Part shown: positions 8,548-42,080 of the stretch, piece after piece
Numbering within the stretch: position 1 is the first letter of the stretch
How the letters are laid out: every line of letters begins with the position of its first letter
Virus record (IMG/VR): IMGVR_UViG_3300042290_000544
DNA length: 64,000 bases
Source of the DNA: a virus
Strand: one strand, 5' to 3'
Program-made: the position numbers and the translations under genes
Notes under the pieces: generated by a model
Told to the model about the DNA's origin: nothing
What the model saw: only the letters and a program-made list of their open reading frames with translations
Databases searched by the model: none

Positions 8548-9023
8548 TTTAATTTGTCAATTTCCTGTTTAATATGATCCCTTAGCCTGCATTCAAGGTC
8601 AGACGCAAGGTTAATGATTTTGTTATCGATGTAGTGTTTAAGACTGGTCTCATAGGAATTATTACACTCCTTAACATACATCTGTTCCAAAATCGGAACA
8701 TGATTTTCTAGAACGGATTGGGCAATCTTTTCCACATACTTATCTAAGGGGTATATACCCGAAACTGTTCCTCTTGTGGCTTGAACTTGAATATGATCCT
8801 CGCTATAGGTAACACGTTGCGTGGTTGTTGAATTCCACGTGGAGGGAAACGAAAGACTATTAGCTCCAACAGAATATAGCGATGAGGCGCCGTTAGCCCA
8901 ATCATTGGTCATCTGAATCGCCGGCGACTGAACTGCAACGGCTGGAGGCTCTTCCTTTACAGGCTTGGGCTTCGGATATAGCTCCTCAAGTTTTTCAATG
9001 AGACTGTCACTGATTGTATTCAT
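8523..9023 (-). CDS. Hypothetical protein
   Basis: ORF tightly packed in the operon. Confidence 0.6.
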   Translation of the reverse strand: MNTISDSLIEKLEELYPKPKPVKEEPPAVAVQSPAIQMTNDWANGASSLYSVGANSLSFPSTWNSTTTQRVTYSEDHIQVQATRGTVSGIYPLDKYVEKIAQSVLENHVPILEQMYVKECNNSYETSLKHYIDNKIINLASDLECRLRDHIKQEIDKLKCSPGTHI

Positions 9024-32809: not shown

Positions 32810-32904
32810 TGGACCGCGTGTAGGGCTCGAACCTACATCTTCAGTTTCGTTCAGGGTGTACTTGACCTGTAACACTGAAATCTTATCCTTTAGACGAACG
32901 CGGT
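32810..32904 (-). ncRNA. tRNA-like RNA with expanded anticodon arm
   Basis: Acceptor, D and T arms present; 28-nt structured insert in place of the anticodon loop. Confidence 0.65.
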
Positions 32905-33544: not shown

Positions 33545-33915
33545 TGGTGGACCTGAGGGGAGTTGAACCCCTGTGTTCAATAATTTTTCCGATAATTTTC
33601 TACAAGCTTAGTACTACTTAACTGTCGCCATGATACCGTAATACTGTATCATGATTGTTTTGGTGAGGATACACATCTTGTACACCACTTCAAGACGGTC
33701 TCGCTTTTTATGACGAGTGTAACACTTAGCGAGAATCTGTGTTATCTACTCGATCACAGTTTTTAGGCTGCGAGTGGCATTTCTTCGGCGAAACCGAAGA
33801 AATTGCTGAGGGCTTTATTAATGCCGTTTAACTTTTTACCAGTTTTTAAAAGGTATCCGGAGAACCTTGCTTGCTTACTATAAGTCTATTACTGAGTCGA
33901 ATCCAGTACAGGCCC
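33545..33915 (-). ncRNA. ssrA: tmRNA
   Basis: 5' GGGCCUGUACUGGAUUCGAC, 3' T arm plus GGUCCACCA; internal tag GINKALSNFFGFAEEMPLAA*. Confidence 0.92.
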
Positions 33916-35670: not shown

Positions 35671-35808
35671 ATTAAAAAGAACTAAAACCGAGACACTTGA
35701 AGTGTTGCTCAATTTCATAATACAATCATACATCAATGTCGGTCAAAGTAAAACAAATAATGCAACTTCGACTGTGTTTAAGTTGTTGATGGTCAACAAC
35801 CGCACAAA

Positions 35809-39513: not shown

Positions 39514-39588
39514 TGGAGCCCCCGATGGGATTTGAACCCGCAACCGCTTGTTTACAAAACAAGTGCTCTACCATTGAGCTACAAGGGC
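39514..39588 (-). tRNA. tRNA-Thr(UGU)
   Basis: Loop UUUGUAA. Confidence 0.92.
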
Positions 39589-39597
39589 AAACTAACA

Positions 39598-39662
39598 TCC
39601 CACCATGCACCTAGAAGCATTGCTGCTTTCACGGATGAACCCGACATTCAGTGCAGGTAGGA
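39598..39662 (-). ncRNA. Stem-closed small RNA candidate
   Basis: UCCUACCUGCAC/GUGCAUGGUGGGA stem on the minus strand (G-U pair supports this strand). Confidence 0.45.
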
Positions 39663-39821
39663 AAAATTGCCCGGCTGTTATTTAAAGACGTCCGGGGCTC
39701 GTCTGTTTTTATTTGAAAAAAGAACTAATTTTACCCCTCTCAGCCTTTGCTGGTTTGGATACCCTTTGTCGGTCGTTTGGACTCCTTAAAGCCGGAGTCT
39801 GGCAGTGAAATTGAAAGTGAT

Positions 39822-39854
39822 AAAAAAACCTCTGAGCTTTATGGCCCAGAGGTT
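39822..39854 (-). terminator. Attenuator terminator upstream of the tRNA array
   Basis: CCUCUGGGC-CAUAAA-GCUCAGAGG-UUUUUUU on the minus strand. Confidence 0.85.
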
Positions 39855-39887
39855 AAAGATAATTTCGATTTTAGATCGACCTTATTT

Positions 39888-39980
39888 TTAACCCCTGTAA
39901 CCTGTTCCGCGTACGGACCAGAACAAGCCACAGCTATGTGGATATTGTTCTGTATTTGATTTAATCTGTACTGAAAGCAT
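39888..39980 (-). CDS. Putative attenuator leader peptide MLSVQIKSNTEQYPHSCGLFWSVRGTGYRG (30 aa)
   Basis: First ATG after the promoter; its stop region pairs with the 5' arm of the terminator. Confidence 0.65.
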   Translation of the reverse strand: MLSVQIKSNTEQYPHSCGLFWSVRGTGYRG

Positions 39981-39998
39981 TTGAAGTGTTTGTTGATT

Positions 39999-40040
39999 TA
40001 TTTATAAGACAATCATACCCTATTTCCATCAAAAGTAAAC
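39999..40040 (-). promoter_or_regulatory. Tandem early (GTTTAC-17-TATGAT) and late (TATAAATA) promoters of the RNA island
   Basis: -35 at 40035-40040, -10 at 40012-40017, TATAAATA at 39999-40006. Confidence 0.75.
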
Positions 40041-40374
40041 AACAAAAGCACTTATTTTTAAAGTAATTGAAGCCATCCATTGATCGTCCAAACCTTCAAG
40101 ACGCCTTCTTCCTCATCATGCCACACCGCCCCGACGATCACATTGGGTGTAACTACAGACGATACCACAGTTAGCTCCGTAGGTTTATCAAGATATGGAT
40201 TGCTCATTGCCGGTGACAACAACCCCGTCATGGTCCGGGGTATCGCAATCTTTCGTACATCGTATGGACGATCCAGATCTTTATAATACGGATACGATTG
40301 AGCACGATAAGAAACCTTAAATTCTGCCGGCGGTGGCTTTGGAAGATGCTTGGCTAGATTGTCAATTAACGAAC

Positions 40375-41058
40375 TCATTGTAGATAAAGATATGGCTTCC
40401 ATTCCTCGCGGATACCCATATCCTCGGGAATTTGAACACCGATTCGGATACGGTTCTTTGGAACCACTTCCTTGCCATTGATGTCGAAGTATGGAAAAAT
40501 GTTGTCCTTGGCAGCATTACAGTCGCGGCAGGCAAGAACAAGGTTGAACCCGTCATTGGTACCACCCTTCGACTTGGGATGCACGTGATCCTTGGTGGCA
40601 ACGCAGAAAGGTATCTTTTTGAGGCAGTACTGACAGGTGCCCTTATAGATGCTGTAAAGACTCCGAAGTGAGGTTTGCTGACCACGACGAACAGTATGTC
40701 CGAAGTGAGTAGTGCAGACGACGATGGTCGGAATTGCCCATTGCTTTTCTTCACCGCTGATACGGTCGGGAGCCGAACGTAAACAGGGCTGATTAGAAAA
40801 TAGTTCTATGGTGTTCTTCGACCAAGAATAGCCGTCATTGTCTTCACGACCGTCCCATGGAATTGTGTTACCACTGGCGTCAATACCGTGAGCCCTACCA
40901 TTCATCATATGACGCATGCACGCACGCGCAGTAAAGAAGGCATAGGCTTGGTACGAACCGTCAAGCACCAAGGTGGTCCGTGCGGTTGCATCAACGGGCG
41001 TCAATACATTAACCTGTAATTGATTTAACAACTGAAGAGAAGCCTTTTCGTGGGACAT
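40375..41058 (-). CDS. HNH endonuclease
   Basis: CQYC, T.DHV.PKSKGG....NLVLAC..CN..K motifs. Confidence 0.88.
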   Translation of the reverse strand: MSHEKASLQLLNQLQVNVLTPVDATARTTLVLDGSYQAYAFFTARACMRHMMNGRAHGIDASGNTIPWDGREDNDGYSWSKNTIELFSNQPCLRSAPDRISGEEKQWAIPTIVVCTTHFGHTVRRGQQTSLRSLYSIYKGTCQYCLKKIPFCVATKDHVHPKSKGGTNDGFNLVLACRDCNAAKDNIFPYFDINGKEVVPKNRIRIGVQIPEDMGIREEWKPYLYLQ

Positions 41059-42080
41059 TGTATTTGCGAGCGTTAGAGTAGGATTCACCATTGAGCACTT
41101 GGCAGTGGCCAGCGGTTTTGTGGTCCCAGATCATGATACCAAAGCGGTTGACCTTGGTCTCACGTGGGACGAAGTTAGGGTCGGGTAGGATACCAGACCG
41201 AATAAGACTTTGAATGATTTTGTCGTTGGACATTTTAGTAAGTGGTAAAACAAACACCCCAAGCGGGCGCGTTTTCATCTTTTTTAAGACCTGGATAACC
41301 TGGATAAACAGGATGGGTACGCGCAATTGTATCATAGTTAGCATACTCAGAATTGTAGACTACTGCTTCGACGTCTCCATGTTTGGCCTTAACAGCATTG
41401 AGTTCGTTAATTAATTCGGAGATTTTCATATTTAAGAAAGTAGCAGAGTTTTTATAAATGTCGAGACTTATTTTTTCTTTTTAAACAAAATGTTATGGAT
41501 CGCATTTATGTCGTCGGCTGAAATTTCGTCGGTTTTGAGAAATGAAGCGAACACATTTCGGATGTCTCTTTTCATTGCGTCAAGTTCGATCCACTCTGCA
41601 ATGTCAATGTTTTTTTGATTTGGTTTCATTTTTCAAACTTTGAATTTTTGCCTTCACTTGGTCAATTCTTTTTTTCGTAGCTTCGATTTTTTCTTGGCTT
41701 GGGTTTACGTCGGTCAACAGATAACGAAGATTTGTTTCGTTCCAAGTCAATTCAAATTCCGCATTTCTTAAATCGGTGTTGTGTTTCATTTGTAGAATTT
41801 ATGATTTTCGATTGTTTGTTACTTCTTTTCCTTTTCGAGAATCTCCTTCAATTCCTTGGCGAAATCAAGGACAAAGTATTCATCCAATCCAAGATCGCCC
41901 TTACACCAATGATCCCCACCGAGGCGCTTTGCGTGCTTATTGAAAAGCTTATCCACTAGTTCTTGAAATTCGTCGTTGGTCATTATGATATAATCCTACA
42001 CTAAATTGGCTAAAAGTAAATCAATTAGATTGTCCTAAGTTGTTGATTAGTAATGTCAATGTTTTTTTGTTTTGGTTTCA

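Follow-up and report, generated by a model that had tools for sequence, protein, structure and literature searches.

Why phages carry tRNA genes, and how the expression of these genes is timed, is debated; the proposals include matching of codon usage, substitution for host tRNAs that have been degraded, and evasion of defences that cut tRNAs. The locus described here raises the question of whether the output of a phage tRNA array is tied to translation itself. The window (the whole stretch of 64,000 nt that was analysed, from virus record IMGVR_UViG_3300042290_000544) carries on its minus strand, from 39588 down to 32032, an array in which 29 tRNA genes are accompanied by a one-piece tmRNA. 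It also contains genes for ribonucleotide reductase, DNA ligase, exonuclease and HNH endonuclease, and among cultured phages it is closest to Methylophilales phage Melnitz and Pelagibacter phage HTVC008M, with a protein identity of about 43%. Based on this gene content and these relatives, the window was assigned to an uncultured T4-like myophage. The related contigs come from lake metagenomes, and the phage is a freshwater one. An initial annotation had read the region ahead of the array as a leader-peptide attenuator in which stalling at almost any codon switches the phage tRNAs on.

The elements of the leader all lie on the minus strand. An early and a late promoter had been claimed, and both were found. 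The early promoter is of sigma-70 type (40012-40039), with the -35 element TTTACT at 40039-40034, a spacer of 16 nt and the -10 element TATGAT at 40017-40012. The T4-type late promoter box TATAAATA, identified by sequence match, is located at 39999-40006; elsewhere in the window, late boxes with a nearby ATG occur, for example, at 2624, 20079, 43685, 55211 and 62837. The early promoter box belongs to a family (D5) with four copies in the tRNA region. The three others lie within the array at 35760-35711, 35490-35441 and 33112-33063, which accounts for the internal promoters that had been placed near 35716, 35446 and 33080. The leader ORF (39888-39980) begins at the first ATG of the transcript and consists of 30 codons and a TAA stop, with a second in-frame TAA at 39884-39882. 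As had been reported, 26 different codons occur in it and 18 amino acids are represented; the 22 tRNAs said to decode it correspond to 22 of the 27 distinct anticodons found among the 29 tRNA genes. Within the ORF, a two-tier hairpin is predicted (39919-39952; outer stem of 8 bp, 39952-39945 with 39926-39919, and inner stem of 5 bp). This hairpin, already noted in the initial annotation, appears in the same predicted fold as the structures described below and is a possible polymerase pause site. The long antiterminator hairpin (39843-39902) has a 5′ arm at 39897-39887, which includes the stop codon, and a 3′ arm at 39857-39847, which overlaps the 5′ arm of the intrinsic terminator. The terminator (39822-39854) is formed by an 11-bp stem (39854-39827) and a run of seven U ending at 39822, in agreement with its earlier description as strong.

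On the other side of the promoters, the HNH endonuclease gene was found at 40375-41091 (minus strand), and at the homologous place in all lineages an HNH gene lies directly upstream of the head promoter of the RNA operon. Between the HNH gene and the head promoter, the window has an intervening ORF of 114 codons (40058-40402), whose identity with L001 is only 43%. The leader region is absent from the closest virus record (G001).

Related leaders were then compared. Exact-word scans at first returned only near-identical leaders. Because the phages carrying them are close overall, with flanks of 73-99% identity, these leaders say little, and the high nucleotide conservation among the first relatives was weakened as a sign of function. 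Five further lineages were fetched via the neighbouring exonuclease gene, a conserved word of the downstream RNA and the terminator pattern. The attenuator was thus found in six lineages of uncultured freshwater T4-like phages (the window group, L030/L097, L099/L105, L101, L106 and L107). All six share one order of elements: HNH gene, early promoter, late box, start codon, an ORF of 23-35 codons with an internal hairpin, a stop codon in the 5′ arm of the long hairpin, a terminator sharing the segment ACCUCUG, a conserved structured RNA termed ncRNA2, and the tRNA array. The promoter of early sigma-70 form was at the same place in every one of them, and a hairpin was predicted at the same place within the ORF in all six, with quite different sequences. 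Three other lineages (L098/L103, L100/L027 and L104/L033) have ncRNA2 and the array with the attenuator absent, and there the promoter stands directly before ncRNA2.

Wider searches added no further attenuators. No match to the leader or to ncRNA2 was obtained in the GenBank phage collection, where the tmRNA/tRNA query gave generic tRNA matches only. One scan of the metagenome collection returned the window's own lineage only, and a covariance model of the 3′ domain of the leader, applied to 44 other sources that total 0.62 Mb, detected no additional copy. Pattern matches L091-L096 were chance hits in coding DNA. Because the 16 matches in prokaryote genomes were unrelated terminators, they provided no clue to a host or a prophage.

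The competition between the two hairpins was analysed by folding and by covariation. Starting at the late start and ending with the terminator, the RNA was predicted to fold at -52.5 kcal/mol (z = -6.1 versus shuffles), with the antiterminator formed and the terminator excluded. The pairing of the ORF end and stop codon with the 5′ arm of the terminator, as claimed earlier, is a real helix of 11 bp (39897-39887 with 39857-39847) within this minimum-free-energy fold, and the two hairpins, which share ACCUCUG, are mutually exclusive in folding. The forced terminator fold reached -46.4 kcal/mol, a cost of about 6 kcal/mol, and the unmasked probability of the terminator in the window was 0.001. 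When a ribosome footprint was placed on the stop codon in the folding models, this probability was 0.95-0.97 in all six lineages. The models also indicated that in the nascent RNA of each lineage the antiterminator is formed before the 3′ arm of the terminator exists. With the footprint 10-14 codons upstream, the antiterminator was clearly favoured in four lineages and balanced in two. The terminator was already favoured at equilibrium without a ribosome in L099 and L101, so the predicted default state differs between lineages.

Covariation was scored on an alignment of the 3′ domain of the leader. Four of the 21 antiterminator pairs showed compensatory changes, and 89.7% of the cells were paired, compared with 29-46% when the partners were slid; only 2 of 500 shuffles scored as high. 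Every terminator cell was paired (100%); one pair was compensatory, and two wobble changes were seen as well. Eight alignment columns belong to both helices, and since both are kept, the competition between them is itself conserved. Because the alignment holds only six distinct sequences, this covariation is supportive rather than conclusive.

Known RNA elements were considered for the same region. No Rfam family matched at the leader, and the T-box model gave no match at E up to 10. The best Rfam resemblance was to the PyrR-binding attenuator, which was rejected as not significant (23.8 bits against a gathering threshold of 54, E = 0.44). The 3′ arm in the window matches the rrn boxA sequence at 9 of 13 positions; a boxA/boxB (nut-type) antitermination reading was rejected because the bases of this arm are not conserved, changing together with their pairing partners in other lineages.

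We were particularly interested in whether the short ORF is a real part of the switch. All three frames of the leader stretch contain few stop codons, and a 30-codon ORF is not unusual there, so an open frame alone is weak evidence. More informative is where the frame begins and ends. The stop codon occupies the same structural position, in the 5′ arm of the long hairpin, in all six lineages, and the frame through the codon GGT is identical in every one. The transcript's first ATG shares its frame with this conserved stop in five lineages, giving ORFs of 23-30 codons. The sixth, L099/L105, has no in-frame ATG and would need a TTG, which is present at the usual spacing and gives 35 codons. The start context is also that of a gene. 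The late genes of this phage have hardly any leader: at nine of the ten TATAAATA boxes that precede a long ORF in the window, the ATG lies 5-9 nt past the box; the leader ORF starts 6-8 nt past the late box in five of the six lineages and 18 nt past it in the window. A Shine-Dalgarno core was found before only 10 of the 76 long ORFs of the window. Its absence is thus normal in this phage, and a missing Shine-Dalgarno sequence was dropped as an argument against translation of the leader ORF. Among L101, L106 and L107, the indels inside the ORF are of 6 and 3 nt, whereas the two 5′-UTR indels, which fall between the late box and the start codon, are only 1 nt long. In the window group, all 11 variable sites fall within the ORF and none in the other 92 nt, and 7 of the 11 change the residue. 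The frame is thus kept, and the peptide is not. Taken together, ORF, antiterminator and terminator in six lineages, the covariation, the frame-conserved stop and the gene-like start uphold the trp/his-type geometry that had been proposed, and short upstream ORFs with covarying stems do precede the arrays of related phages.

The proposal that the leader is built to sample as many codons as possible did not hold up. Codon and amino-acid diversity is mildly raised in the window lineage, compared with windows of the phage's own genes (P about 0.03-0.04). It is ordinary in the other five lineages (P 0.16-0.52), and a pan-codon design is therefore unsupported. No runs of codons for one amino acid were found in any of the leader ORFs, whose peptides contain 14-18 different amino acids each.

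The main alternative is that the ORF is incidental and that the leader acts without translation, as an RNA switch or else a leaky terminator whose outcome depends on folding kinetics, on a protein of phage or host, or on a second RNA that binds to the 5′ arm or to the conserved apical hairpin. Several observations are in its favour. Conservation is much stronger in the 3′ domain than in the ORF part, since nhmmer aligned only model positions 106-183 between lineages; the apical hairpin has a semi-conserved sequence; and the nearest Rfam resemblance, non-significant as it is, is to a protein-controlled attenuator. The lack of variable sites outside the ORF in the window group and the frequency of open frames in this stretch point the same way. 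However, this alternative leaves unexplained why the first start always opens the frame of a stop that sits at one fixed point of the structure, why the start spacing copies that of real late genes, and why indels come in multiples of three in the ORF but not in the UTR. Moreover, no candidate factor was identified. We consider a translation-independent switch unlikely.

The leader is instead probably a ribosome-mediated transcription attenuator that senses general translation speed and heads an RNA operon of ncRNA2 and tRNAs. Transcripts would start at the early or the late promoter and carry the short ORF near the 5′ end. During synthesis the long hairpin would form first and occupy the 5′ half of the terminator, so that polymerase would read on. 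A ribosome that reaches the stop codon in time would cover the 5′ arm of the hairpin; the terminator would then fold, and transcription would end about 180 nt from the start. Fast translation would give less ncRNA2 and fewer promoter-proximal tRNAs (22 genes, up to the next copy of the promoter), and slow translation, whatever its cause, would give more of both. Because slowing from any cause would raise the output, the circuit would act as feedback on translational capacity and not as a sensor of a single amino acid. This feedback logic, in which keeping pace stops transcription and lagging permits read-through, is likely from the geometry of the leader. We infer translation of the ORF, the timing and the physiological signal; the leader may respond to starvation or to anticodon nucleases. 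A more specific role can be put forward tentatively. The leader may gauge decoding capacity: if host tRNAs run short or are cleaved, through starvation, host shut-off or an anticodon-nuclease defence, the leader ribosome would lag and ncRNA2 and the tRNAs would be switched on, and recovery would switch them off again. If true, this would be a self-correcting circuit of tRNA supply in a virus, of which we found no published description.

What would come under this control lies past the terminator. ncRNA2 is a conserved structured RNA of about 150 nt (39657-39805, minus strand) with 24 predicted pairs, six of them with compensatory changes, and no Rfam family matched it. It ends in a terminator-like hairpin (39697-39669) followed by a short U run, which is weak in the window and strong where a protein gene comes next. 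It also carries a GTTCTTT motif. Counterparts were located at L030:5871-6029, L098:3636-3788, L100:5493-5646 and L104:4776-4934, and ncRNA2 precedes tRNA arrays in at least nine lineages, three of them without the attenuator, so that it is spread more widely than the switch. Between ncRNA2 and the first tRNA, a long hairpin was read from the sequences (39599-39661, minus strand); its stem persists in L001 and L030 although the bases differ, and the L002 group has an extra insert of about 85 nt just upstream. The first array gene by tRNA call is tRNA-Thr(UGU) (39514-39588, minus strand). The same tRNA is the first after ncRNA2 in L001, L002, L098, L099, L100, L101 and L107, and what precedes it elsewhere is only a tRNA-Val in L030 and L026 and an odd tRNA-like gene in L106.

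The earlier view that the attenuator gates the tRNA island is thus right in that the attenuator precedes the array, and has to be amended in that ncRNA2 lies between the two and three lineages do without the attenuator. Because ncRNA2 lies between, the switch would control ncRNA2 first and then the tRNAs by read-through as far as the next promoter at 35760. No promoter was seen, by eye or by scan, in the approximately 230 nt between the terminator and the first tRNA, and downstream of the leader the repeated promoter box first recurs at 35760. About 22 promoter-proximal tRNA genes therefore appear to depend on read-through, and the three internal promoters feed the distal tRNAs.

These observations also bear on a second alternative, in which promoter, mini-ORF and terminator form a small stand-alone unit that yields an sRNA or a micropeptide, much like known attenuator-derived sRNAs, and the tRNAs are expressed by occasional read-through and from promoters of their own. 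Such a unit would fit the distance of only about 180 nt between its own promoters and a strong terminator, the compact fold of the full-length RNA (the z-score given above), the presence of a further structured RNA, ncRNA2, in the tRNA region and the existence of the internal promoters. However, an upstream arm of the same RNA captures the terminator in every lineage, which would be a poor design for constitutive termination, and the dependence of the proximal tRNA genes on read-through and the unconserved peptide also argue against it. A stand-alone unit is, in our view, quite improbable.

An arrest peptide, whose nascent chain would stall the ribosome at or near the stop codon in response to a small molecule, as in TnaC, and so set the fold, is very improbable: a Pro followed by a Trp 2-6 residues on recurs in all six leader peptides and Gly-x-Lys stands before the stop in four, but this similarity is not independent evidence because CCA and UGG sit in hairpin stems and the C-terminal residues in the conserved hairpin arm, so that RNA constraints explain it, and both the residue changes in the window group and the free variation of lengths and spacings speak against it.

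Ribosome-mediated attenuation, the preferred reading, has well-known precedents in cells. In phage T4, tRNA genes are co-transcribed with the small stable RNAs C and D, which are of unknown function, and we know of no leader ORF or attenuator described for that cluster. ncRNA2 shows no sequence similarity to it, as judged from the absence of a match in the phage collection. The trp, his, leu, phe, thr and ilv attenuators of enterobacteria share with the phage leader a leader ORF, an intrinsic terminator and an overlapping antiterminator whose 5′ arm is covered by the ribosome when it is at the ORF end, as well as a distance of about 65-70 nt from stop codon to terminator end and a possible pause hairpin within or just after the ORF. 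The phage leader differs in having no codon run for a single amino acid, no sequence homology and, except in one lineage, no obvious pairing that captures the arm when the ORF is untranslated. Its targets also differ, being a structured RNA and tRNAs in a virus and not biosynthetic enzymes.

Closest in logic is the whiB7/wblC attenuator of Actinobacteria, where no single type of codon is regulatory and stalling anywhere leads to antitermination (PMC10274678). The initial annotation knew of no sensor of many amino acids; this has to be corrected, as the whiB7 uORF attenuator is activated by depletion of 18 of the 20 amino acids, or of tRNAs or synthetases, with a specificity that follows the composition of the uORF (PMC10274678). 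The sequence and length of that uORF vary between species and the switch is kept; the ORF part of the phage leader has likewise diverged past nhmmer detection. In contrast, whiB7/wblC controls a bacterial transcription factor for the antibiotic and starvation response, and its uORF is enriched in alanine. The phage leader has no sequence relation to it, has RNA genes and no WhiB-like regulator downstream, and belongs to a different host lineage, and its output would feed back on the very decoding capacity that is sensed.

Two further systems resemble parts of the phage leader. In Anabaena sp. PCC 7120, the supernumerary tRNA genes of the trn operon form an array that spreads horizontally and is induced under impaired translation (PMC8421152), but it is cellular and is controlled at its promoter by the repressor TrcR (PMC10272220), without a leader ORF or terminator. 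The E. coli toiL uORF before topAI-yjhQ senses general ribosome stalling and relieves premature termination (PMC12121999); however, that termination is Rho-dependent, with antibiotics as the studied trigger, whereas the phage leader has an intrinsic terminator and a competing hairpin. For Melnitz, the published account lists four tRNAs and a tmRNA linked to a riboswitch but no leader attenuator, and in our literature search no paper was found on control of phage tRNA genes by a uORF attenuator. The mechanism is already known; what would be new is its target, RNA genes, and its viral setting. A leader-ORF attenuator before the array would provide a concrete control point and predicts that phage tRNA output is tied to the decoding speed of the ribosome. 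It would carry classical attenuation beyond protein-coding operons, to RNA genes and into a virus, and it draws attention to ncRNA2, a conserved unnamed structured RNA that would be under the same control.

Some features of the arrays themselves were also recorded. The one-piece tmRNA gene lies inside the array at 33545-33915 on the minus strand (105.6 bits); the tmRNA of the marine relative Melnitz has been reported as two-piece. A 93-nt stretch at 32812-32904 (minus strand) scored 41.6 bits against the Rfam tRNA model with no ARAGORN call; it may represent either a tRNA-like RNA or a tRNA carrying an insert. ARAGORN also called tRNA-like genes with four-base anticodons (cctg, gcca and ataa) at L026:13545-13621 and at L106:8180-8255 and 8563-8652. 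Finally, L023:6430-6996 holds the 5′ half of a tRNA-Thr, an insert encoding an HNH-like protein and then a full tRNA-Thr, which suggests that the tRNA heading that array contains an intron or has received a homing-endonuclease insertion.
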